Shown here: positions 3,981 to 51,257 of the stretch, piece by piece
Layout of the letters: each line of letters opens with the position of its first letter
Numbering within the stretch: the first letter of the stretch is position 1
From: Nanoarchaeota archaeon SCGC AAA011-D5
Lineage (GTDB): Archaea; Nanobdellota; Nanobdellia; Pacearchaeales; GW2011-AR1
Assembly (NCBI GenBank): GCA_000405225.1
Contig: ASMP01000001.1
Span: forward strand, 69,191 to 133,190
Length of the DNA: 64,000 nucleotides
Direction: 5' to 3'
Notes under the pieces: model-generated
The model's database searches: none
The model's input: only the letters and a program-made list of their open reading frames with translations
Told to the model about the DNA's origin: nothing
Made by a program: the position numbers and the translations under genes

Positions 3981-5261
3981 ATGGAGAGAACTTATGCTTC
4001 TGACTTAGAATCAGGGAAAGAAGCCTTTCTTCAGGGATGGGTCCATGATATAAGAAGCCTTGCGAAGATGAAATTCATCCTTCTTAGAGACATGTCTGGA
4101 ATTGTCCAGTGTGTCTTAAAGCAGGACACTAAAGGATTTGATGAAGAACTTACTCTGGAAAGTGTCATAGGTGTTAAGGGAAAAGCCAAGCCCGCCAAGC
4201 TAACCAATGGAGAATTAACCAACAAAAACCTTGAACTCGAGATTTCCCAATTAGAAATTATCAGCAAGGCAGAAGAGCTTCCGATACAGGTTAATGAGAA
4301 AGGAGCTAAAGCAGAACTTCCAACAAGGCTGGATAATCGGTCTTTAGATGTAAGGAAACCAAAGATTGCAGCAATTTTTAAGATTCAGAGCACAATAATC
4401 AACGGATTCAGGGAGTTTTTTTACCAAAAAGGATTTACTGAAATACAGCCTCCAGGAATCATAGCGACAAGCACAGAGGGAGGAACAGATCTTTTTGAAG
4501 TAAAATATTTTGACAGGAAGGCATACTTGGCACAAAGTCCTCAGCTTTACAAACAGCTTGCGGCAATTTCTCTGGAAAAAGTATTCTCCACAAGTACTGT
4601 CTGGCGTGCAGAAAAACACGATACGACAAAGCACATAAATGAAATAAGGCAGATGGACATTGAAGTTGCCTTTGTTGATGACAAAGGAATCATGAAATAT
4701 CTTGAAGAAGCCATCCAGCATATGGTAAGAAAAGTTTTGAAAGAATGCAAAGAAGAATTAAAACTGCTAGAAGCAAAATTAGAAATCCCGAAGGCAAAAT
4801 ATCTTACTTACAGCGAGGCCATTACCCTTTTGAACAAGCATGGCTTTAAGCTTAAATCTGGAGATGACTTTGAACCAGAAGCTGAAAAAAAACTCTGTTC
4901 CCTTTTTCCAGACACGATAATTTTCACTTATGAATGGCCTTCAGAAATAAAGCCATTTTACATCTGGCCAAAAAATCCAGAAAAAGGCACATCAGCAGGT
5001 TTTGATGCCCTTTATGGCGGAGTTGAAATCTCTTCTGGAGGACAGAGGGTTCATGTTCCGGAAATTTTAACCAGGCAGTTAAGATTAAAAAAACTGAACC
5101 CTGAAAATTTTAAGTGGTATGTTGACGCTTTCAGATACGGAGCTCCAATACATGCCGGTTGGTCTATTGGCCTGGAACGCCTTACTCAAGCCATGTTAAA
5201 ATTACCAAATATACGCGAAGGAACTTTATTCCCAAGAGACAGGAGAAGGCTGACGCCTTAA
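3981..5261 (+). CDS. aspS: aspartyl-tRNA synthetase (archaeal type)
   Basis: Class II aaRS motifs. LAQSPQLYKQ signature, FRAE-like WRAEKH and GLERL motif 3. Confidence 0.85.
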   Translation: MERTYASDLESGKEAFLQGWVHDIRSLAKMKFILLRDMSGIVQCVLKQDTKGFDEELTLESVIGVKGKAKPAKLTNGELTNKNLELEISQLEIISKAEELPIQVNEKGAKAELPTRLDNRSLDVRKPKIAAIFKIQSTIINGFREFFYQKGFTEIQPPGIIATSTEGGTDLFEVKYFDRKAYLAQSPQLYKQLAAISLEKVFSTSTVWRAEKHDTTKHINEIRQMDIEVAFVDDKGIMKYLEEAIQHMVRKVLKECKEELKLLEAKLEIPKAKYLTYSEAITLLNKHGFKLKSGDDFEPEAEKKLCSLFPDTIIFTYEWPSEIKPFYIWPKNPEKGTSAGFDALYGGVEISSGGQRVHVPEILTRQLRLKKLNPENFKWYVDAFRYGAPIHAGWSIGLERLTQAMLKLPNIREGTLFPRDRRRLTP

Positions 5262-5262
5262 A

Positions 5263-6570
5263 ATGACAGAAAAATTCATTTCAATTTCAGAAGCATTGAA
5301 GAAGGGAAATGGAAAGGTAGCTGTGCGCGGGTGGATTTACAGAGAGCGAGGAAGCAATGAATTCAAATTCCTTGTTTTAAGAGACAGCAGTGATATAATC
5401 CAGTGCGTCCTTAAAAAAGAGAAGTTCAAGAAACAATGGGAGGAAATTGACAAGATTCAGGTTGAAACAAGCGTTGAAATTGAAGGAACAATTAAGAAAG
5501 ATTCCAGAGCACCAACCGGCTACGAAATTGATGTAGATGAGACAAAAATAATTGGTGTGAGCAAAGATTTCCCTATAAATAAAAGCCTTAATGAAGAACT
5601 TTTAGGAGACAGGAGACATCTTTGGCTTAGAAGCAGGAAGATGAATTCAATCATGAAAATCAGAGACACAGTATTAAGAGCGATGAGAGAGCATTGGCAT
5701 AAAAAAGGGTTTTATGAATATCACTCCCCCACTTTGCTCGGAATGCAGGCAGAAGGTGGAGCAACCCTTTTCAAGGTGGATTATTTTGGAAAACCGTTGT
5801 ATCTTAGCCAGACATGGCAGCTGCATGCAGAAGCAGGAATCTTTTCTCTGGAAAAAATATTCACCATACAGCCGAGTTTCCGTGCAGAAAAAAGCAAAAC
5901 ATCGAGGCATCTTACTGAATACTGGCATGCTGAGATGGAAGTTGCATGGGAAGATTTTGACTACCTTCAGGACGATGCAGAGCAGTTGATTAAGCATATT
6001 GTTGAAAAGGTTTTGCAGGAAAGAAAACCAGAGCTGGAAATTCTTGGAAGGGATTGGAAAAAATTGGAGGCAACTATCAGAAAAAAATTCCCGAGAATAA
6101 CCTATGACTATGCTTTGAAACTTCTGAAGGAAAAAAAGAAAATCAGCATTCCGTGGGGAAAAGATCTTAGAACAATAGAAGAGGATAAGCTTTCAGAACT
6201 TTACGACACTCCAATAATGGTCAGGCATTATCCTAAAATTGTAAAGGCTTTTTACATGAAAGAGGTGCCAAACACGGAAAAAGGAAAAGAAACCGTATTT
6301 GGCTTTGACATGATAGCACCTGAAGGTTATGGAGAGCTTGTCGGTGGTTCACAGAGAGAAGAAGATATTGAAAAGCTCAAGAAGAATTTGAAAGCTCAGG
6401 GAGAAGACCCAAGCAAGTATGAATTTTACTTTGACACCAGAAGATATGGTAGCGTTCCTCATGGTGGCTTTGGAATGGGTGTTGAAAGAGTGATTTCTTG
6501 GATATGCGGACTTGAAACAATAAAAGACGCTATTGCTTTCCCGAGAACGATGACAAGATGGAGTCCTTAA
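5263..6570 (+). CDS. asnS: asparaginyl-tRNA synthetase
   Basis: SFRAEKSKTSRHLTEYWHAEMEVAW and GGFGMGVERVISW closely resemble AsnRS. Starts 2 nt after aspS. Confidence 0.85.
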   Translation: MTEKFISISEALKKGNGKVAVRGWIYRERGSNEFKFLVLRDSSDIIQCVLKKEKFKKQWEEIDKIQVETSVEIEGTIKKDSRAPTGYEIDVDETKIIGVSKDFPINKSLNEELLGDRRHLWLRSRKMNSIMKIRDTVLRAMREHWHKKGFYEYHSPTLLGMQAEGGATLFKVDYFGKPLYLSQTWQLHAEAGIFSLEKIFTIQPSFRAEKSKTSRHLTEYWHAEMEVAWEDFDYLQDDAEQLIKHIVEKVLQERKPELEILGRDWKKLEATIRKKFPRITYDYALKLLKEKKKISIPWGKDLRTIEEDKLSELYDTPIMVRHYPKIVKAFYMKEVPNTEKGKETVFGFDMIAPEGYGELVGGSQREEDIEKLKKNLKAQGEDPSKYEFYFDTRRYGSVPHGGFGMGVERVISWICGLETIKDAIAFPRTMTRWSP

Positions 6571-7298: not shown

Positions 7299-8015
7299 TT
7301 ATTTAGAAAATTTATAAATCAATTTAAACCATTTTCTAAAAGAATCTGCAATCTCTTTGTTATTTATCATAAAGCCAGTTGGATATTTTTCTTTCCATAG
7401 AACAATTGCAACTTTATTTCCAAAAATATTAACAACAGAATTTGATACTATATCTTTAGGTAAGACTTTACCTTTAAACAAGGGTTTTTTAATTAATTTA
7501 TTTTTAATATTTTCGTTATCAAATAAGCATATAAATTTTATTCTCTTTTTTATTCTCTCTTTTTCAAAATTAGGAATAAAATAAGGCAATTCTTCAAATA
7601 TCAGACCTTTAGCATTTAAAACATAAATATCTCCATTTTCTTTTAACATCTCTAGATGTATCGTTTTTAGTCCTTCTTTTCCTTTGTATATAGAAGCATT
7701 TATTTCTTCTTTTTCTGTATTTTCTAACTGTTTTAATTTTGGCAATAAATTTTCAATAACCATTCTTTTTTCATCAATATCTTTCAATAAATTTTCCGGA
7801 CTTGAAGCCTGAAAGTATTTTTTAAAACCTTTTATTACATAACTTACTAAACCCATTTTAATCAGAATTTCTAAGCTATCATATACTCTAGATCTATGCA
7901 AACCGGAATCTTTTATTATATTCTGAGTGCCAGTTGAACCTCTTTTCAACAAGGACAAATAGACTAAAGATTGATTTTTTGTCAATCCTGCCTTTTCTAA
8001 TTCTTTTATTTCCAT
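7299..8015 (-). CDS. TrmB-family transcriptional regulator
   Basis: N-terminal winged HTH (GLTKNQSLVYLSLLKRGSTGTQNIIKDSGLHRSRVYDSLEILIKMGLV) typical of TrmB. Confidence 0.65.
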   Translation of the reverse strand: MEIKELEKAGLTKNQSLVYLSLLKRGSTGTQNIIKDSGLHRSRVYDSLEILIKMGLVSYVIKGFKKYFQASSPENLLKDIDEKRMVIENLLPKLKQLENTEKEEINASIYKGKEGLKTIHLEMLKENGDIYVLNAKGLIFEELPYFIPNFEKERIKKRIKFICLFDNENIKNKLIKKPLFKGKVLPKDIVSNSVVNIFGNKVAIVLWKEKYPTGFMINNKEIADSFRKWFKLIYKFSK

Positions 8016-8098
8016 AACATAATAGCGTTAACCCCTTTATAACTCTTTTTCTTGTAATCCTTTAAAGGAGGACAGCATTTTAAAAACTGGTTCTTTCT

Positions 8099-10070: not shown

Positions 10071-10088
10071 GGAATTATCCAGCCACTA

Positions 10089-10155
10089 TATTTGTTACCT
10101 TTATTAAGGAACAACGAAATAGAAACATTATAAATATCAGATTTCTAGAAAAAAC
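10089..10155 (+). promoter_or_regulatory. conserved promoter module, copy 1 (TTGTTAC-N-AACAA palindrome + BRE/TATA, leaderless)
   Basis: Near-identical to 20935-21004 and 38361-38428. TTATAAATA sits about 25 nt upstream of the ATG. Confidence 0.5.
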
Positions 10156-10779
10156 ATGGAAAAAGAACAGCCAATAACAATTGATGCAGAGACCGTAAGA
10201 AGAATGCAATTGAATGCAGGAAGAAGTCCGAGAGTTGCTTTGATGGATATGAATATGATGGTTTCAGTTGTAAATCCTATCAATCCAGTCACTGGAAGAC
10301 CTTACGAAAAAGGATTTATGCTTGAATCTGAAAGAAGAAGAATAAAAAAGGATTATGGCTTAAAAGAATGGAATTCTAATATGTATATAAAATCACTTTT
10401 TTCTTTGCTTTCACAACTAAACCAAGTAATAGAACTCCAAAAAGCTCTAGGAAGAATGGAAGTTAGGGAAGGAAAATTACCTGAATTGTTTTATGAACAA
10501 TTTTTAGACGATATTGATAAATTGGCTGATTTATATGCTCAAAGTCCAGATTTGACTTTGGAATCAATAACTGATGTTAATGGTTTGAATACTGCTCTTA
10601 GAGCAATTAGAAGAGGGAGATTTTTTATAGAAATAGAAAGAAAAGAAATAGAAAGAAACAATTTAAAAGATAATTATTATATGGCGGAACTTCTTAATAC
10701 TATTCCTGTTAAAGAATCTGATATTCCTTGTCTTTTTGATGATTCCTCAAAAAGAAAACCAGAAAACGGACCAAATTAA
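10156..10779 (+). CDS. hypothetical protein driven by the same conserved promoter module as the DGR target genes
   Basis: 207-aa ORF with no recognisable domain. Its upstream 65 nt is a paralog of the DGR-target promoters. Confidence 0.5.
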   Translation: MEKEQPITIDAETVRRMQLNAGRSPRVALMDMNMMVSVVNPINPVTGRPYEKGFMLESERRRIKKDYGLKEWNSNMYIKSLFSLLSQLNQVIELQKALGRMEVREGKLPELFYEQFLDDIDKLADLYAQSPDLTLESITDVNGLNTALRAIRRGRFFIEIERKEIERNNLKDNYYMAELLNTIPVKESDIPCLFDDSSKRKPENGPN

Positions 10780-12524: not shown

Positions 12525-12620
12525 CGCCCGAGGCTGGACTCGAACCAGCGACCCCATGGTCTCCGCATTATCTAATTTTATCTAACAGCCATGTGCTCTG
12601 ACCGACTGAGCTACTCGGGC
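12525..12620 (-). tRNA. tRNA-Asn (anticodon GTT) with ~23-nt intron after position 37
   Basis: Acceptor GCCCGAG/CTCGGGC, D arm GCTC/GAGC, anticodon stem CATGG/CCATG, loop CTGTTA, T arm GCTGG-TTCGAGT-CCAGC, discriminator G. Confidence 0.8.
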
Positions 12621-20407: not shown

Positions 20408-20653
20408 ATGGTGCAGAACATAATTGATTTGGGTGAAAATGAAGACAGGATACTAAACATAGTGAAAGCCAAACACGGCCTTAAAAACAAATCCCAGGCA
20501 ATAGCAATGCTAGCCAAAGTCTACGAGGACAGTTTTCTTGAGCCTGAATTGAGGCCGAAATATATAGATAAATTAAAGAAAATTGAGAAAGAAGGATATG
20601 GTAAAACCTTTAAATCTATTGAAGAGTTGAGAAGAATAATAGAGAAAAGGTAA
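20408..20653 (+). CDS. putative antitoxin of a RelE/ParE-type TA pair
   Basis: 81 aa, 1 nt upstream of the toxin. Paralog of 51308-51598 (shared KxKYGLKxKSxAL core). Confidence 0.5.
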   Translation: MVQNIIDLGENEDRILNIVKAKHGLKNKSQAIAMLAKVYEDSFLEPELRPKYIDKLKKIEKEGYGKTFKSIEELRRIIEKR

Positions 20654-20654
20654 A

Positions 20655-20930
20655 ATGCCTAGGCAATATAAGACAAGCAAGAATTTTGATAGAATTCTTG
20701 ATAAGTTGAGGAAAAAAGACAAGATTGCCTTTGAAAGTCTCCTTAAAAAAATGGATGAAATCTTAAATATATCAAATGTAGAGCATTATAAAAATTTGAG
20801 ATATTCTTTAAAAGATTTTAAAAGAGCCCATGTTGGTTCTTTTGTCCTTGTTTTTAGGTATGACAAAAAAAATGACATAATCTTTTTTACAGATTTTGAC
20901 CATCATGATAATATTTATAAGAAAATCTAA
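20655..20930 (+). CDS. RelE/ParE-family toxin
   Basis: 91 aa. FKRAHVGSFVLVFRYDKKNDIIFFTDFDHHDNIYKKI matches the RelE/ParE C-terminal core. Paralog at 51599-51889. Confidence 0.65.
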   Translation: MPRQYKTSKNFDRILDKLRKKDKIAFESLLKKMDEILNISNVEHYKNLRYSLKDFKRAHVGSFVLVFRYDKKNDIIFFTDFDHHDNIYKKI

Positions 20931-20934
20931 CCCT

Positions 20935-21004
20935 TATTTTTGTTACTTCTTTAAAAGAACAACAAAATAGAAACATTTATAAATATCAGATTTCTAGGAA
21001 AAAT
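20935..21004 (+). promoter_or_regulatory. conserved promoter module, copy 2 (upstream of DGR target 1)
   Basis: TTGTTACTTCTTTAAAAGAACAA palindrome, then AAATAGAAACATTTATAAATA (BRE/TATA) about 25 nt from the ATG. Confidence 0.5.
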
Positions 21005-21886
21005 ATGGAAACAAAGACAAAATCAACATTCAAAGGAAAGCCTTTAATTGAAATTCCAGCATTTATACCCCAAATTGGTTTTCTAGAAGGAGATTTTGGT
21101 AGAGCTTTTCTTGAAGAACATCAGGGAAGAGCGGGCTCTGATTATAATGGCAATTCTGCACTGAATGTTCTTGGATATAATGGAAATGTAGTTACAGGGT
21201 CAAATCCATTTTCCGTAGTTCTTGCAAACCAAATTCTTAAACAAGAAGGCCTAAGAACAGCTTCCCAAGCTGACTTAGAAACAGCTATGAGAATTGGGGC
21301 TATGAATTTCAGAGGAACATATGAAGACACAGCTTTAGTTTTGAGAACAGAAGATGATAAAGACTATTCAAGAAACACTCCTTTAGCTAGAGACTTAGGA
21401 AGACAACTTAAAGAAAGAGGAGTAAAGTTCGGAGCTAAAAGTCCACTAATTATTCCTTTGACTGACTTAGATCTTCAAAAAGCAGAAAATGATTATGGTT
21501 TGACATTCAAATTAAGAGAAGATGCAGAAGTTTATGAAGCACCTATTTTAACAAAAGAAGGAAAATTCAATTCAGAAGATATTGATGAAAGAACAGGATT
21601 GCCAAAACAAGTTAAAGGTGGAAATAGAACTCTTTACTCTAGAAATTCTGGGCTTTCCGGGTTGTTCTTGGGCCTCGGCCTGGGCCTGGGCTCGGGCAAC
21701 TGGGGCTTGGACTACTCCAGTGTGGATGGCAGGGTGGTTCTTGTTAGCGCCGCAGGCGCGCGCGCCGATTTTGACCAAAGGCTGACAGGACTTGAAACTC
21801 AAAGACAAGAAGCACATCAGACATATCTTGCTAAATTATCTCAATTAATAGAGAGTATAGACAGTGAACTTAAGAGATCAAAGTAA
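21005..21886 (+). CDS. DGR variable (target) protein 1, carries VR1 near C-terminus
   Basis: 293 aa. C-terminal SGLSGLFLGLGLGLGSGNWGLDYSSVDGRVV is encoded by a sequence matching the TR at every non-adenine position. Paralog of 38429-39199. Confidence 0.7.
   Translation: METKTKSTFKGKPLIEIPAFIPQIGFLEGDFGRAFLEEHQGRAGSDYNGNSALNVLGYNGNVVTGSNPFSVVLANQILKQEGLRTASQADLETAMRIGAMNFRGTYEDTALVLRTEDDKDYSRNTPLARDLGRQLKERGVKFGAKSPLIIPLTDLDLQKAENDYGLTFKLREDAEVYEAPILTKEGKFNSEDIDERTGLPKQVKGGNRTLYSRNSGLSGLFLGLGLGLGSGNWGLDYSSVDGRVVLVSAAGARADFDQRLTGLETQRQEAHQTYLAKLSQLIESIDSELKRSK
21652..21737 (+). repeat. DGR variable repeat VR1
   Basis: About 86 nt aligned to TR 22081-22166. Roughly 22 mismatches, all at TR adenine positions (AAC codons changed to GGC/CTC/TAC etc.). 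Confidence 0.75.
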
Positions 21887-22080
21887 TCTGTTAAATTTAT
21901 AAAATATTTTTTCTTTATAAGATTCCTAGCCAATTTTGCTTAAGGGCAGAGGGCTGGGCCACAAGCCGATTAATAGAGCTTATTCAATTAGGCCATAAAA
22001 TTCAGCTTCGACAACTAGTAAATATGAAAATATTGAAAATTGAAGAAGCGGTGATTTACTTTCAATTAATTGGCTATATT

Positions 22081-22166
22081 GCTTTCCAGGTTGTACTTGA
22101 ACAACGACCTGAACCTGAACTCGAACAACAGGAACTTGGACAACTCCAATGAGAATGGCAGAATGG
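22081..22166 (+). repeat. DGR template repeat (TR)
   Basis: AAC/AAT-rich (CTTGAACAACGACCTGAACCTGAACTCGAACAACAGGAAC...). Lies between the target gene and the RT. Identical to VR1 and VR2 except at adenines. Confidence 0.75.
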
Positions 22167-22194
22167 CTCAGATGGCTAGGATACTCATAATAAT

Positions 22195-23245
22195 ATGCGA
22201 TCTCATGATAACCTTTATCCTAAAATTTATTCTGTAGTAAACCTTGTCTTAGCTTGGAAGAAGGCTAGAAAGGGAAAAACTCGAAGAGATTATGTGATAG
22301 ACTTTGAACTAGAGTTAGGAAAAAACCTGAAGGCTTTGCATGAGGAACTAAAGAATAAGACTTACAGGCCAGGCCCATTAAAAACGTTCATCTTGAGAGA
22401 CCCAAAGACAAGAAAAATCTCGAAATCAGAATTTAGGGATAGGGTAGTTCATCATGCTTTAGTAAGAATGATTGAGCCAATTTTTGACAAAACATTTATT
22501 CATGATTCTTATGCAAACAGAAAAGGCAAAGGCAACCTGTTTGCTGTTGAAAGATTCTATAAATTCATCAGAAAAGTTTCACGAAATGGAAAAACTAAAG
22601 GATGGTTTAATAATAATCAGATAAAAGGATATTGCCTTAAAGCAGACATAAAGCATTATTTCCAAGAAGTTGACCATGAAATTCTATTAAGAATCATAAA
22701 AAAGAAAATAAAAGATAAAGATGTTATCTGGCTTATTGAAAGAATTTTGGAGAATAACGTTCATGATAATCCAAATGGCAAGGGAATGCCTCTTGGAAAT
22801 CTGACAAGCCAATTCTTTGCAAATGTTTATTTGCATGAGTTAGACAAATTTGTGAAACATAAGTTAAGAGCAAAATTTTACATAAGATATGTTGACGATT
22901 TTGTCTTGCTAAATTCATCAAGAGAAAAACTGCTAAGCTGGGGGGGGGGCGATAGAAGATTTTTTAGTTAAAAACCTAAAAATAGAACTTCATAAAGAAA
23001 AATCCAAAATTATCTCTCTTTCAAAAGGAATAGATTTTGTCGGCTTCAGGAATTTTTATCATTTCAGGCTTTTGAGGAAAAGAAACATCAGAAAAATGAT
23101 TTTTAATGTTAAAAAATATAAAAATAGGGAAATAAACAAGGAAAATCTTCTTGAAAGCTTTCAAGGCTGGAATGCCTATGCAAAATGGGCAGATAGTTTT
23201 GAATTAAGAAAAAATATTGTGAAAGAAATTTATAGTATAAAGTAG
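22195..23245 (+). CDS. DGR reverse transcriptase. Reading frame broken at a G10 run (22940-22949). Annotated ORF 22195-22971 plus in-phase continuation to 23245
   Basis: SYANRKGKG, LKADIKHYFQEVDH, the DGR-specific motif-4 variant MPLGNLTSQFFANVYL (xGxxxSQ instead of QGxxxSP), catalytic IRYVDDFVLL. After a +1 shift the frame continues IEDFLVKNLKIELHKEKS...GIDFVGF...FQGWNAYAKWADS. Confidence 0.85.
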
Positions 23246-27337: not shown

Positions 27338-27411
27338 TGAGCCCGCTCAGATTTGAACTGAGGACTTCCGCCTTATCAGAGCGGCGATCTACCAGGCTGA
27401 TCTACGGGCTC
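27338..27411 (-). tRNA. tRNA-Ile (anticodon GAT), no intron
   Basis: Acceptor GAGCCCG/CGGGCTC, D arm GATC-AGCCTGGTA-GATC, anticodon loop CTGATAA, T arm CTCAG-TTCAAAT-CTGAG, discriminator A. Confidence 0.85.
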
Positions 27412-28264: not shown

Positions 28265-28371
28265 TGCACCAGCCGGGAATCGGACCCGGATTACAAGATT
28301 CTTCCGTTGGACGAACGCCTAGGCGTAGTCATTCGTGGGAATCTTGAGTTCTGCCGTTAAACCACTGGTGC
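28265..28371 (-). tRNA. intron-containing tRNA, probably tRNA-Gly (anticodon CCC), ~36-nt intron
   Basis: Acceptor GCACCAG/CTGGTGC 7/7, D arm GTTT/GAAC, anticodon stem CAAGA/TCTTG with loop TTCCCA then intron containing palindrome ACGCCTAGGCGT, T stem CCGGG/CCCGG with atypical loop TCCGATT. Isotype uncertain. Confidence 0.55.
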
Positions 28372-35972: not shown

Positions 35973-38354
35973 ATGCCCATAACAAAACAAGAATTGACAG
36001 AGCTCTTTGAACAGCTTGGACAATACAAAACAAGGGCTACAGAACTTATAACTGTATATATTCCTGCCGGACAGAACATATATACGGTGGCTGACCAGCT
36101 CGAGGCAGAGAAATCTACTGCGAAAAACATAAAATCTGCAGGAACCAGGAAAAATGTCGGCAATGCTCTTGATAAGATAACCAGGCAGCTTAAGGAATAC
36201 AAAAAAACCCCTGAAAACGGTCTTGCAATTTTTTGCGGGAACATATCCAAAGTTGAAGGCCAAGAAGATTTACAACTTTGGGCTATAGAGCCTCACACGC
36301 CTCTGAAAACAAGAATGTATCGCTGTGACAAAGAATTTATTCTTGATCCTCTGAGAGAAATGCTGGAAGTGACAGAGGTTTTTGGACTTTTGGTCATGGA
36401 CAGGAGAGAGGCAACAATTGGCATGCTTGAGGGAAAAAGGATAGAGACTCTTCATAAAATGACTTCAGGTATTCCTTCAAAAATAAGGGCCGGAGGGCAA
36501 TGCTTAGCTCAGGATACATTGATTATGAAAGATAATGGGGAAATCTTAGAAATTCAGAATTCACACAACCCCTTAATGATTATTTCTGAGAATTTTAATC
36601 AAGAGAGATCAGAAATGACACCCTTAATTGCTAAATGGGAAAATAACAAAGAATTGTTTAGGGTTATAACAAAATATCCTAAATTAGAGGTTAAAGCATC
36701 TGGTGAACATACTTTCTTTGTTAGGACAACCAGAGGTATAGAGGAAAAAACTCTTTCTGAACTTAAAGAGGGAGATTATCTAATTATGCCTGAAAAGATT
36801 AATTTACATTTGGAAGACCAAAAAATTGTCTTTTCTCCAGAAATTAAACAAGCCTTTAATATGAAAAATATCCAAACTCTTAATAAAGTTATTCCTGATT
36901 TTGCTAGAATTTTGGGCTATTATCTTGGAGATGGATGTTATGAAATTGACAGATTAACTTTCTTTGAACAGAGAGGAGAAGTAGCTAGATATTATCTGGA
37001 TTTAATTGAGAAGGTTTTTGGAATTAAATCTGACTTAAGATTTAGAAAAGATAAAAATTATTGGCAATTAAGGGTTTATAGCAGATTGGTCTCTCAATTA
37101 TTTAAACAAATTTATCCTGGACAAGATAAAACCCATGCCGGAAGAATACCCCCTATCATATTAAAATCTTCTGATATTGCCCTAGCTTCTTTCATTGGGG
37201 GATTTTTTGATGCTGAAGGATATGTTGCAAAAACAAGAATTGCTGCAGGATTTAACAATGAATTGTTAGCTAGACAATTACAATTTGCTTTATTGAGGGT
37301 AGGTATCATATCTTCAATAAATATTTATGATAATAGAAGAAACCCTTATTCAGACAAATTTAGATATACTCTGGCAATTGACGATTTAGAATCTATTAAA
37401 ATCTTCCAAAAAATGATTAACTTTTGTTCTGAAGAAAAAAGGAATAAGATTCAAAACCTAATTAACAAGAGGAGCAATAGAAATAAAGTTAGGCAATTAG
37501 TTGTAAATGGGAAAGAGATTGCTAGAATAATAAGGAATTCTGGTTTAAATACGAGGCAATTTAGCTGCCCTGATTTCTTTAATAATAAGAAACAATTAAG
37601 TAAAAAGGTATTTAAAAAGAGAATCTTAGATAAAATTAGTAATAATGACCTAAAAAGAAGATTAGAAATGTTCTATAATTCCAACCTTATAATTGTCAAA
37701 ATTAATAATATTAAATCGGTTGGTATTCAGAAAACTATAGATATAGAAACTAAAAACCATAACTTTATTGCCAATGGTTTAATAGTCCACAATTCAAGCC
37801 AGAGATTTCACAGAATAACAGAAGGCCTGACAAAAGAATTCTATAAGAGAATTGCAGAAGACATGAAAAAAATTTTCCTTGGAATGCCAAAACTTAAAGG
37901 AATACTGATAGGGGGCCCGATACCGACTAAAGACGAGTTTTTAAAAGGGGAATATCTGACAAATCAGCTTCAGCAGAAAGTAATGGGAAAGATAGACATA
38001 GGAGATGCCTCTGAGTCTGGTCTGGGAGAACTGGTGGAAAAAGCGAAGAATCTTTTGGCAGACCAAGAGAGGCTTCAGGAAAAAAAAGACGTTGAACTTT
38101 TCTTCAGGGTTTTAGGGGAAGACCCTGGAAAAGCAGCACTCGGTGAAAAAGAAAGCAGAAAGGCCTTGGAAATGGGAGCTGTTGCTACTTTATATGTAAG
38201 TTCCAAGATTCCCAAGAGTCTTATAAAAGAACTTTCAAAAATGACCGAAAACACAGGTTCAGAAATAAAGACCATTTCTACAGATACACCGGAAGGCGAG
38301 CAGTTTTTTAATATGGGCGGAGTAGGAGCAATTTTAAGATTCAGGATTGGGTAA
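35973..38354 (+). CDS. prf1: peptide chain release factor aRF1 interrupted by an intein
   Basis: NIKS motif (TAKNIKSAG) and GGQ loop (IRAGGQ) followed directly by Cys. Extein resumes SSQRFHRITEG. C-terminal domain matches eRF1. Confidence 0.85.
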   Translation: MPITKQELTELFEQLGQYKTRATELITVYIPAGQNIYTVADQLEAEKSTAKNIKSAGTRKNVGNALDKITRQLKEYKKTPENGLAIFCGNISKVEGQEDLQLWAIEPHTPLKTRMYRCDKEFILDPLREMLEVTEVFGLLVMDRREATIGMLEGKRIETLHKMTSGIPSKIRAGGQCLAQDTLIMKDNGEILEIQNSHNPLMIISENFNQERSEMTPLIAKWENNKELFRVITKYPKLEVKASGEHTFFVRTTRGIEEKTLSELKEGDYLIMPEKINLHLEDQKIVFSPEIKQAFNMKNIQTLNKVIPDFARILGYYLGDGCYEIDRLTFFEQRGEVARYYLDLIEKVFGIKSDLRFRKDKNYWQLRVYSRLVSQLFKQIYPGQDKTHAGRIPPIILKSSDIALASFIGGFFDAEGYVAKTRIAAGFNNELLARQLQFALLRVGIISSINIYDNRRNPYSDKFRYTLAIDDLESIKIFQKMINFCSEEKRNKIQNLINKRSNRNKVRQLVVNGKEIARIIRNSGLNTRQFSCPDFFNNKKQLSKKVFKKRILDKISNNDLKRRLEMFYNSNLIIVKINNIKSVGIQKTIDIETKNHNFIANGLIVHNSSQRFHRITEGLTKEFYKRIAEDMKKIFLGMPKLKGILIGGPIPTKDEFLKGEYLTNQLQQKVMGKIDIGDASESGLGELVEKAKNLLADQERLQEKKDVELFFRVLGEDPGKAALGEKESRKALEMGAVATLYVSSKIPKSLIKELSKMTENTGSEIKTISTDTPEGEQFFNMGGVGAILRFRIG
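36501..37793 (+). mobile_element. intein with LAGLIDADG homing endonuclease, inserted after GGQ of aRF1
   Basis: Starts with Cys (CLAQDTLI), ends ...GLIVHN followed by Ser. Two LAGLIDADG-type motifs ILGYYLGDGCYE and FIGGFFDAEGYV. About 431 aa. Confidence 0.75.
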
Positions 38355-38360
38355 ATCAAT

Positions 38361-38428
38361 AATTTGTTACCTCTTTCAAAGAACAATAAAATAGAAAAAT
38401 TTATAAAGTTCATTTTTCTGGGAAAATT
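38361..38428 (+). promoter_or_regulatory. conserved promoter module, copy 3 (upstream of DGR target 2)
   Basis: TTTGTTACCTCTTTCAAAGAACAATAAAATAGAAAAATTTATAAAG... homologous to copies 1 and 2. Confidence 0.5.
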
Positions 38429-39199
38429 ATGGAAACAAAGGCAAAACGTCCAGTATTCAATGGAAAGCCGTTAATTGCAATTCCAGCAGTTATTCCACAG
38501 GCAGGTTTTCTTGAAGGAGACTTTGGAAAAGCTTTCTTAGAAGAATATCAAGGAAGAGTTAAATCTGATTATAAAGGAAATTTTGTTTTAGATGTTCTCA
38601 AATATGGAAATGATGTTGTAAAAGGCTCAAATCCTTTTGCAGTTGTTCTTGCAAACCAGATTCTCAGGCAGGAAGGATTAAGAACAGCAACACAAGCTGA
38701 CCTTGAAAAAGCACTTAGAATTGGTTGGAATTTAAGAGGAACATATGAAGATACTGGTCTGGTTTTAAGAACAAAAGAAGACAAAGACAATCCAAAAAAT
38801 ACTCCTTTAGCGAAAGATATTAGCTCTCAACTTATGGCAAGGGGAATAAAATTCAGTCCTAAGAATCCAGTAATGGTTCCTTTAACAGGACTGGAACTTG
38901 CGAATGCAGATAATGATTACAGATTAACATTCATATTAAGGGAAGACGCAGAAGCTTATGAAGCACCTATTTTAACAAAAGAAGGAAAATTCAATTCAGA
39001 AGATATTGATGAAAAAACAGGATTACCAAGACAAGTTAAAGGCGGAGACAGATGCATTTATGCTAGAAACTCTGGGCTTTCCGGGTTGTGCTTGGGCGGC
39101 GGCCTGGTCCTGAGCTCGAGCGACGGGGGCTTGGGCGGCTCCTATGAGGATGGCAGGGTGGTCGTTGTAAGTGCTGAAGGCACCTCACAAAATTCTTGA
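38429..39199 (+). CDS. DGR variable (target) protein 2, remote paralog carrying VR2
   Basis: 256 aa, roughly 70% identical to 21005-21886 over the N-terminal 210 aa. C-terminus diverges only where the TR has adenines. Confidence 0.7.
   Translation: METKAKRPVFNGKPLIAIPAVIPQAGFLEGDFGKAFLEEYQGRVKSDYKGNFVLDVLKYGNDVVKGSNPFAVVLANQILRQEGLRTATQADLEKALRIGWNLRGTYEDTGLVLRTKEDKDNPKNTPLAKDISSQLMARGIKFSPKNPVMVPLTGLELANADNDYRLTFILREDAEAYEAPILTKEGKFNSEDIDEKTGLPRQVKGGDRCIYARNSGLSGLCLGGGLVLSSSDGGLGGSYEDGRVVVVSAEGTSQNS
39076..39161 (+). repeat. DGR variable repeat VR2 (remote)
   Basis: Aligns to TR 22081-22166. About 22 mismatches, all at TR adenines. Substitutions differ from VR1 (for example AAC to GTC/AGC/GAC). 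Confidence 0.7.
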
Positions 39200-39245: not shown

Positions 39246-39881
39246 ATGCAAAAAAACAGAGGAGACCTAATATTCTGGCTGTTCGGCTCTTATCTAATCC
39301 TTATAGGAATGCTTGCCTTTGTCAATGCTTTCTTGCATCTGGAAGATGCTATTCCATTATGGTTTTCTTATATCGCTGTTTTTCTTATCGGAATTGGAGT
39401 CATCACAAAAAATTCTGATATGATTGCAATCCAAGCAAACATTATCGCCATACCATATATTTTCTGGAATATTGATTTTTTTTATCAACTGGCAACCAGC
39501 AGACCTTTATGGGGAATCACCGACTATTTTTTTATCAAAGAGGGGATGAATTCGCTGGGCAATTTCGTAACTCTGGAGCATATTTACATTGTTCCTGTCG
39601 CGATAGGGTTTATTTATCTTCTCGGAGCCCATAGAAAAGATTTATGGAAAATAAGCTTACTCGAAATAGCTATCATCTTTTTCATGACTTTTTTCCTTTC
39701 TTCTAGTGAAATGAATGCCAACTGCGTCTTTAGTTCCTGCATAAGCTTCATTTCTTTAGAAAGCCCTGGTTACCAATTCTTATGGTTTTTTACTGTTTTT
39801 ATCATAATCTTCTTGACAAATCATCTTCTTGTTTATCTTATGAAAAAGGCTCACAGATTTGATATGAAGCCCGATGAATAA
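39246..39881 (+). CDS. membrane protein, hypothetical
   Basis: Multiple TM helices. Confidence 0.45.
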   Translation: MQKNRGDLIFWLFGSYLILIGMLAFVNAFLHLEDAIPLWFSYIAVFLIGIGVITKNSDMIAIQANIIAIPYIFWNIDFFYQLATSRPLWGITDYFFIKEGMNSLGNFVTLEHIYIVPVAIGFIYLLGAHRKDLWKISLLEIAIIFFMTFFLSSSEMNANCVFSSCISFISLESPGYQFLWFFTVFIIIFLTNHLLVYLMKKAHRFDMKPDE

Positions 39882-39911
39882 ATTTAAAACTTCCCGCGAT
39901 TTCTTTTAATC

Positions 39912-40463
39912 ATGACTGAAAAACCAGAGATTTCCAGTAAAACCCAGGAAGAGATTGATGAAGGAAAAGAAAAAGAAGACATGAGGATGATAGAGTCAAT
40001 CCTTTTTGTATCTGGAAAATTCCTTGATATGAAAGCCTTAATTGCACTTTCCGATATGAACCCGATAATTATAAGAGAATTGCTGGAAAAACTCAGAGAG
40101 TCCTATGAGGAAAGAGAGTCTGCGCTTAGAATTATTGAAAAAAACGAGATGTGGAAAATGGATGTTCGCCCCGAATTCAGCCATTTAACGACAAAGATTG
40201 CAGGAGGATCTTCCGAATTTACAAAAGCAGAGCAGGAAACACTGGCAATGATCGCGTTTAAACAGCCGATAAAACAATCTGTGATAGTAAAGATAAGAGG
40301 GAACAAAGCCTACGACCACATAAAAAAATTTGTGGAGTTGGAACTCATTAAGAAAAAGAAGCAGGGGCATACCCATGAACTGAGCTTAAGCCAGGAATTT
40401 TATGATTATTTCGGCGTTTCAGAGCCAAAAGCGCCAGAAAAAACAGAAGCAGAGTTGGATTAA
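39912..40463 (+). CDS. scpB: segregation and condensation protein B homolog
   Basis: Tandem winged-helix pattern ESILFVSGKFLDMKAL...LAMIAFKQPIKQS typical of ScpB. Confidence 0.6.
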   Translation: MTEKPEISSKTQEEIDEGKEKEDMRMIESILFVSGKFLDMKALIALSDMNPIIIRELLEKLRESYEERESALRIIEKNEMWKMDVRPEFSHLTTKIAGGSSEFTKAEQETLAMIAFKQPIKQSVIVKIRGNKAYDHIKKFVELELIKKKKQGHTHELSLSQEFYDYFGVSEPKAPEKTEAELD

Positions 40464-51125: not shown

Positions 51126-51257
51126 GGCTCCGTAGCTCAGCCTGGTAGAGCACTGGACTCTTATGAGGAGAACCAAGGTTCTCCCTACACTACCCTCTCC
51201 TTTACAAGAGAAATCAGAGAGATCCAGGTGTCGTGGGTTCAAATCCCATCGGGGCCA
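51126..51257 (+). tRNA. tRNA-Lys (anticodon CTT) with 58-nt intron (51164-51221)
   Basis: Acceptor GGCTCCG/CGGGGCC, D arm GCTC-AGCCTGGTA-GAGC, anticodon stem CTGGA/TCCAG, loop CTCTTA|intron|A, T arm GTGGG-TTCAAAT-CCCAT, discriminator A. Confidence 0.85.

Follow-up and report, generated by a model that had tools for sequence, protein, structure and literature searches.

The question raised by this locus is why one sequence of about 68 nt should recur, little changed, directly in front of three genes, two of them DGR targets and the third unrelated to both, in a single 64-kb window (the whole stretch of DNA that was analyzed). The three segments, copy A (10088..10155, +), copy B (20937..21004, +) and copy C (38361..38428, +), were present where the first-pass annotation had placed them, and they abut the ATGs at 10156, 21005 and 38429, respectively. 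Copy A was recognized by alignment, profile and pattern matches, copy B was the best match of a target-family profile (E 3e-13), and copy C was matched by the same profile with E 3e-11. The identity over the 68 nt before the ATG had been put at 85–90% and proved slightly lower: 84% between A and B (58/69), 82% between B and C (56/68) and 75% between A and C (52/69). The likeness begins at about position -68 from the ATG (about -80 for the pair A-B), and the shared sequence spans an upstream inverted repeat, the motif ATAGAAA, a TATA box and the whole spacer up to the ATG, so it reaches well beyond the generic TATA box. The similarity of copy A to the other copies ends after ATGGAAA, and that between B and C runs on into the coding sequence of these two paralogs (~80% nucleotide identity). 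Copy A has a 1-nt deletion, one T fewer, at the TATA box (CATTATAAA versus CATTTATAAA in B and C).

The module was found to be rare in the window, where it is carried by 3 of ~75 genes and the GC content is 36.6%; the genes of the window and their best matches indicate a DPANN (Nanoarchaeota-like) MAG. A profile of the three copies recovered its own three sites only (E 4e-19 to 4e-18; next best 0.41), and the pattern ATAGAAA-N2-3-TTATAAA-N7-TTTMT gave three matches when 0.00 were expected from shuffles. For every copy, a gene lies 5' of the module on the same strand, and these flanking genes were those annotated previously: ftsZ before copy A, a ParE/RelE-type toxin gene before copy B and an intein-containing aRF1 gene before copy C.

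The general order of the module is dyad, ATAGAAA, TTTATAAA, N7, TTTCT, N9 and ATG. In copy A, TTGTTAC is located at 10092-10098, GAACAA at 10109-10114, ATAGAAA at 10119-10125, TTATAAA at 10128-10134 and TTTCT at 10142-10146 (+). In copy B, the dyad (20940-20962) is followed by ATAGAAA (20967-20973), TTTATAAA (20976-20983) and TTTCT (20991-20995), and in copy C a weak dyad (38364-38386) is followed by ATAGAAA (38391-38397), TTTATAAA (38400-38407) and TTTCT (38415-38419), all on the + strand.

Archaeal core promoters contain an A/T-rich TATA box of ~8 bp, centered ~25–27 nt 5' of the transcription start, and a purine-rich BRE immediately 5' of that box. In the module, the purine-rich BRE ATAGAAA(C/A)A stands directly 5' of the TATA box, and its AGAAA was nearly invariant in 81 instances, bearing in mind that many module instances came from a pattern-biased scan. 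In each copy, TT(T)ATAAA begins 28–29 nt 5' of the ATG, a distance measured to the ATG and not to a mapped start. TTTCT is located ~10–14 nt 5' of the start, and the ATG follows it at a fixed 9–10 nt in many instances. Other genes of this DNA have a BRE/TATA-like motif, RAAAG-N-TTTATAAA, shortly 5' of the ATG, and TATA-like octamers relative to start codons peaked at -32 to -25, with 18 of 44 occurrences in those 8 positions; this pile-up indicates that leaderless expression is the norm here. As the TATA box of the module matches the local peak, a leaderless transcript is expected from each copy, and the BRE/TATA promoter proposed in the first-pass annotation, with an ATG ~25 nt past the TATA center, was thereby supported. 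Moreover, the 3' end of ftsZ carries a GC-rich hairpin and a T-run before copy A, which argues that copy A begins a new transcript. It was also observed that AGAAA on the BRE side and TTTCT are reverse complements around the TATA box, which in copies A and B takes the form TAGAAA-N18-19-TTTCTA; the core promoter (20967-20996 and its equivalents in A and C) thus looks quasi-symmetric, and its BRE is invariant.

Two of the genes driven by the module are DGR targets, as had been annotated. Target B (21005..21886, +; 293 aa) contains VR1 (21652-21740), and its paralog target C (38429..39199, +; 256 aa), a remote target 17 kb away, contains VR2 (39076-39164). When compared with the template repeat (TR; 22081..22169, +), which belongs to the DGR context outside the module, 22 of 23 mismatches of VR1 and 22 of 25 of VR2 fell at TR adenines. 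A single TR and a single RT (ORF 22195-22971, +; RVT_1 1.5e-15) serve both VR genes, and an RT-16 RNA (21925-22082, +; Rfam RF03019, 104 bits, full length) lies directly 5' of the TR and just touches it. This RT-16/TR/RT unit has a plain TATA box of its own, TTTATAAA at 21896-21903, ~25 nt before the 5' end of the RNA, and neither a profile match to the module nor, by eye, a dyad was found before it. Therefore, the module would drive the targets and not the retroelement core. The TR-RT transcript itself seems to begin with the structured RT-16 RNA, from its own promoter.

The AF2 model of target B was confident (pLDDT 86, pTM 0.76) and shows an alpha/beta body and, behind it, a long C-terminal helix. 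By sequence, the protein matched neither a PDB entry nor AvpA, and Foldseek returned nothing significant; its weak matches (E ~1) were enriched for C-type lectin domains and included the Thermus DGR protein TaqVP. No signal peptide was evident by eye. Outside the window, the same 273-kb contig encodes a third target paralog, P0018, of 293 aa and with 85% identity to target B. Immediately 5' of the DGR cassette are the genes of a DUF2683 antitoxin-like protein and of the ParE/RelE-type toxin (20408-20930, +), and the stop codon of the latter is 9 nt from the dyad of copy B. The aRF1 gene before copy C (35973-38354, +; 793 aa) contains an intein with a LAGLIDADG homing-endonuclease domain; its ortholog in locus L002 has 496 aa and a faint intein match. 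At the orthologous position after aRF1, L002 carries the module, a target and an RT. On the 3' side of target C, a 211-aa protein without Pfam family and then ScpB (39246-40463, +) are encoded.

Gene A (10156..10779, +; 207 aa) belongs to no Pfam family and is located between ftsZ and a nitroreductase gene in conserved synteny. Its AF2 model was uninformative (pLDDT 53). A profile of 40 target-family promoters, from which copy A was excluded, nevertheless recovered copy A with E 2e-9 and the gene-A promoter of L001, a syntenic Nanoarchaeota contig, with E 3e-9. In the more distant L204 and L207/L208, the ftsZ/nitroreductase locus holds an operon of two genes, p134/p147 and, behind it, gene A; there the module (TTGTTACC...ATAGAAA.ATTTATAAA) precedes the first gene of the operon. 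Since the gene-A locus and the target family both carry the module, two unrelated families have kept one promoter across large evolutionary distances. The gene-A locus is syntenic across genomes; the target cassettes are found at different loci.

The target family gave 253 matches, belongs to no Pfam family and occurs in Nanoarchaeota, Woesearchaeota, Pacearchaeota and Aenigmatarchaeota. A metagenome scan with the alignment of this family produced 80 loci, and 40 target-family upstream regions could be aligned over the whole module, wherever the target was the first gene of its unit; their consensus is roughly tTGTTACTtcTtTAAAAGtAACAAaATAGAAAgaTTTATAAA-N7-TTTcT-N9-ATG. Targets located directly behind another gene had no module (L158, L159, L176 and L179). 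Copy B was 90% identical to the target promoter of L126, from another organism, when the proteins were only ~65% identical. Between the paralogs B and C, the identity was 0.82 in the module, whereas 4-fold sites reached 0.67 and third codon positions 0.64. This excess over near-neutral sites points to purifying selection and not to recent duplication.

Additionally, one genome per species was scanned with the BRE-TATA-TTTMT core pattern only, and 118 loci were obtained (54 DPANN, 64 other). The motif GTWAC, which was outside the query, occurred within 12 nt 5' of ATAGAAA in 16 of the 54 DPANN matches and in 0 of the 64 others. The full-length module was also detected before proteins unrelated to either family (L024, L042, L054, L060, L027, L104, L177 and others). 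Nearly all of these other module-driven proteins lack a Pfam domain, and the target-family and gene-A HMMs found no relatives among them. A VR-like C-terminus common to L027, L060, L078 and L090 was discarded as an impression, with a single weak BLAST link between L060 and L180 (4e-5). Four housekeeping genes with the same core were inspected by eye, those of ribosomal protein L3 (L035), ribosomal protein L1 (L121), a histone (L055) and the proteasome (L067); they had no upstream box and long leaders, and they were absent from the profile matches. Across genomes, the module does stand before many unrelated genes, but its density is low and it was not seen at these housekeeping genes with the same core. 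The idea that it travels with its gene as a local triplication was replaced by that of a DPANN-wide element maintained by selection before the target family, the gene-A operon and others.

A viral origin was considered and rejected, because the pattern scan of viral contigs gave two weak partial matches, none of them convincing. An insertion hotspot was observed between adjacent tRNA-synt_2 (Asp/AsnRS-like) paralogs, located in the window at 3981-5261 and 5263-6570 (+) with nothing between them. In L004 (1839-6737), the hotspot holds a complete DGR cassette with module, target and RT, and in L001 (180-4107) it holds toxin-antitoxin genes and, between these and the AsnRS gene, an orphan full module (L001:1481-1531, TTGTTACTTCTTTAAAAGAACAAC...TTTATAAA) with no target.

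The upstream part of the module had been described as an inverted repeat TTGTTAC/GAACAA and as a candidate operator. Exact matches to the window form, TTGTTAC-N10-GAACAA, were found only at the three module sites of the window. The arms that actually pair are TTGTT/AACAA, together with TTCTTT/AAAGAA or CCTT/AAGG further in. At the level of the family, the dyad consensus is TGTTACT-N-AGTAACA, and its distal box TGTTACT and proximal box AGTAACA are reverse complements in one register only, with a column complementarity of the half-sites of 0.53 in register versus 0.32–0.44 when shifted. The proximal box peaks 16–17 nt and the distal box 32–33 nt upstream of the TATA start, which places the dyad directly 5' of the BRE, and the spacing between the boxes is 4, 7 or 10 nt depending on the lineage. 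Perfect long palindromes are present in some relatives, for example TTGTTACTTTT-GTTA-AAAAGTAACAA at locus L144. TACT...AGTA was found in 13 of 80 module instances (shuffles, 1.4) and ACT...AGT in 33 of 80 (shuffles, 9.5); among the window copies, TACT is present in copy B only and AGTA in none, GAACA being found instead.

A generic, position-free inverted-repeat score calculated on 80 instances was not significantly above shuffles (5.16 vs 4.77). No compensatory changes between the two halves of the dyad were detected, and their complementarity was at or below that expected from permuted column composition. When folded as single-stranded DNA, copies A (z -4.0) and B (z -3.5) were better than shuffles and copy C (z -0.65) was not. 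Complementarity at the consensus level without covariation favors a site for a dimeric protein over a selected hairpin. An operator role of the dyad is plausible from its position just 5' of the BRE, but the dyad of copy C is weak. The Rfam search of the window found no family on the module, though it detected the RT-16 RNA nearby. Rfam also matched tRNAs at 12525-12620 (-), 28265-28371 (-) and 51126-51257 (+), of 96–132 nt and probably intron-containing archaeal tRNAs; ARAGORN misses these three and reports only a tRNA-Ile at 27338-27411.

A candidate for the protein that would bind the dyad was suggested by the units that the module precedes. In four contexts, a TrmB-family gene (PF01978 + PF11495) was found to belong to a module-driven unit whose genes lie close together on one strand: between module and target (L142), after the target (L129, L133 and L127), after the module and a small orphan gene (L069 and L122), and in L282, a locus chosen via the protein alone, where a module match (E 2.6e-8) is followed by p136, p115 and the TrmB gene. 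The closest solved homolog of this linked regulator was TrmBL2 (PDB 5BPD; E 5e-22), and the module-linked TrmBL2-like clade in DPANN comprises at least 6675 matches at E <= 1e-20, with ~260 aa and 70–100% identity. A TrmBL2-like protein, or another member of the TrmB family, is tentatively proposed as the regulator. The TrmBL2-like gene may, however, simply be a highly expressed passenger behind the module, a reading suggested by its homolog TrmBL2, which in Thermococcus is an abundant chromatin protein, a global repressor and an SMC roadblock (PMC4158304; PMC11840125). The proximity of ScpB to target C, seen beside the role of TrmBL2 as a Smc-ScpAB roadblock in Thermococcus, is probably a coincidence.

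No ortholog of the module-linked TrmBL2-like clade was found within the window. The window does encode a TrmB-family HTH protein (7299..8015, -; 238 aa; PF01978 3.2e-13) 2.1 kb upstream of copy A. Over 118 aa, this protein shares 31% identity with the TrmBL2-like protein P0153; it is thus only distantly paralogous to the linked clade and makes a weak candidate for the regulator. Its gene is transcribed divergently from a 152-aa orphan gene, and halfway between the TATA boxes of the two there is a perfect 12-bp palindrome, TCCTTTAAAGGA (8058-8069), with the look of an operator for autoregulation. This palindrome was tried as a link to the center of the module and rejected, because it is not enriched in the window (11 matches vs 10.8 expected). 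Compared with L001 and L004, the TrmB and 152-aa orphan genes are inserted between a metallo-beta-lactamase-fold gene and ftsZ.

These results are best explained if every copy acts as a full archaeal promoter from which a leaderless mRNA is made, with an upstream transcription-factor site, and marks a small regulon; we assign this reading a probability of roughly 65%. The module would consist of the dyad directly 5' of the BRE, the purine-rich BRE ATAGAAA, the TATA box TTTATAAA, a conserved spacer with TTTCT and the ATG, and in many DPANN archaea purifying selection would keep its ~68 nt near a single canonical sequence. It would precede a restricted set of units: the DGR-diversified family (cis and remote), the gene-A operon, orphan genes and the operon of the TrmBL2-like regulator. 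A dimeric DNA-binding protein on the dyad, next to the BRE, would modulate the recruitment of TBP/TFB. The transcription start, the co-regulation, the protein binding and the identity of the regulator are what we infer from sequence in this model. Since the module is rare (3 in 64 kb), selective and absent from the four inspected housekeeping genes, a regulon fits better than a generic promoter, and the small co-regulated set proposed in the first-pass annotation is supported and can probably be widened to a DPANN-wide cis-element of low density and selective carriers. A more ambitious version, in which an autoregulated TrmBL2-like protein switches DGR-diversified and lineage-specific orphan proteins on and off in an ancient DPANN-wide regulon, is rather doubtful, even more so than the choice of regulator.

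The main rival, although unlikely, is a constitutive class of strong promoters, near-optimal for TBP, TFB and RNAP, which would serve a few genes of very high expression without any regulator of their own; in that case the upstream box would represent an extended BRE or an UP-like element. Such a class would account for the maintenance of the full 68 nt, including the spacer between TATA and start, at one sequence whatever the gene or genome, and for the diversity of the downstream genes. The dyad without covariation and its non-significant generic inverted-repeat score are also in its favor, as is the recurrent passenger, a TrmBL2-like protein whose homologs are abundant chromatin proteins. 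By contrast, a basal promoter would be hard to reconcile with the four housekeeping genes inspected by eye, which have the same core without upstream box, are not leaderless and gave no profile match. Moreover, the complementarity of the half-sites in one register only is not predicted by an asymmetric contact of basal factors, and the module is used by only 3 of the ~75 genes of the window.

It is improbable that the copies share descent but no function, with B and C similar as paralogs, A having captured a target promoter by recombination, and no regulon. The similarity of B and C does continue into the coding sequence, and copy A is nearer to B (84%) than to the promoter of its own ortholog in L001 (63%), which would fit a recent intragenomic copying; in addition, the module without target in L001, where L004 has target and RT, indicates that cassettes move or decay. 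Nevertheless, the modules of B and C are more alike (0.82) than near-neutral sites (0.64–0.67), copy A is equally close (84%) to the target promoter of a different organism (L126), the gene-A locus carries the module in the distant L001, L204 and L207, and the unrelated genes of L054 and L060, from other phyla-level lineages, have copies that are 80–86% identical. A structured RNA or DNA element (terminator hairpin, 5' leader or riboregulator, or recombination site at a cassette end) is the least probable of all and was dropped, because, even though read-through RNA from the same-strand upstream genes would include the module, the folding of copies A and B surpasses that of shuffles and target cassettes occupy different loci in different genomes, covariation is absent, copy C does not fold, no Rfam family was matched, ftsZ has its own hairpin and T-run before copy A, repeat searches found no partner 3' of module-driven genes that could be a second repeat at the cassette end, the gene-A locus is stably syntenic and the scan of viral contigs gave no convincing copies.

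To our knowledge, gene regulation in DPANN archaea has hardly been described, and neither has the timing of the expression of DGR variable proteins. An archaeal promoter with an upstream transcription-factor site is of a known kind; the literature searched on the promoters of DPANN archaea and of DGRs contained neither the element itself nor its tie to DGR targets, and for TTGTTAC it gave only 16S primer papers. A promoter of 68 nt that is recognizable by sequence alone, and is kept at 80–90% where proteins are ~65% identical, provides a handle for listing a regulon in uncultivated genomes. It would tie the remote DGR targets, gene A and its partners to one control circuit, it provides a concrete candidate regulator, the TrmBL2-like protein, that is testable in vitro, and it may be useful as a ready-made strong or regulated promoter for genetics in DPANN archaea or surrogate hosts. 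If the regulon with a TrmBL2-like switch were true, the hypervariable ligand-binding proteins of episymbionts would be under one dedicated transcriptional switch. If the module were only a strong constitutive class, it would be a useful annotation feature and biologically ordinary.

A canonical DGR cassette comprises a target with VR, an accessory gene, the TR and the RT, and it may have remote targets. The system described here resembles it in that both VR genes, one of them remote, use a single TR/RT, and differs from it in that the TR-RT unit is on its own plain promoter. No promoter module common to cis and remote targets and to non-DGR genes was found in the literature on DGR promoters.

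Known sites of the TrmB family are inverted repeats: TACT-N3-AGTA for TrmB of Pfu/Tli, the TGM TATCAC-N5-GTGATA for TrmBL1/Tgr and TACT-N7-8-GAGTA for VNG1451C of Halobacterium; those located 5' of BRE/TATA are activator sites (PMC4158304). The module likewise has an inverted repeat adjoining BRE/TATA, in the upstream position of the activator configuration, and its consensus TGTTACT...AGTAACA contains TACT...AGTA. Its half-sites are longer, however, the spacing is 4, 7 or 10 nt, and the window copies have GAACAA instead of AGTAAC. The presence of a TrmB-family gene inside module-driven operons recalls T. litoralis, where trmB is encoded in the TM operon that TrmB controls (PMC4158304). The module genes are, by contrast, DGR targets and orphans and not genes of sugar metabolism, and the binding of such a protein to the module is a prediction. 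In the linked DPANN protein, the motif RSRTYD retains the Y-D pair; Y50/D51 are listed as DNA-contacting residues (PMC4158304). The protein is TrmBL2-like, however, and has no sugar-binding subdomain.

The likeness to TrmBL2 (TK0471) resides in the length (260–264 aa) and in each protein being the most conserved TrmB paralog of its lineage. TrmBL2 binds AT-rich, A-tract DNA in coding and intergenic regions and not a defined palindrome (PMC4158304; PMC11840125), and it is not known to have a discrete palindromic operator or a defined regulon promoter, unlike the arrangement proposed for the module. Finally, Ptr2 of M. jannaschii and TFB-RF1 of P. furiosus aid the recruitment of TBP or TFB from a site directly 5' of BRE/TATA (PMC4158304). 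These factors belong to other protein families and recognize other motifs, but the candidate site in the module occupies this same position.
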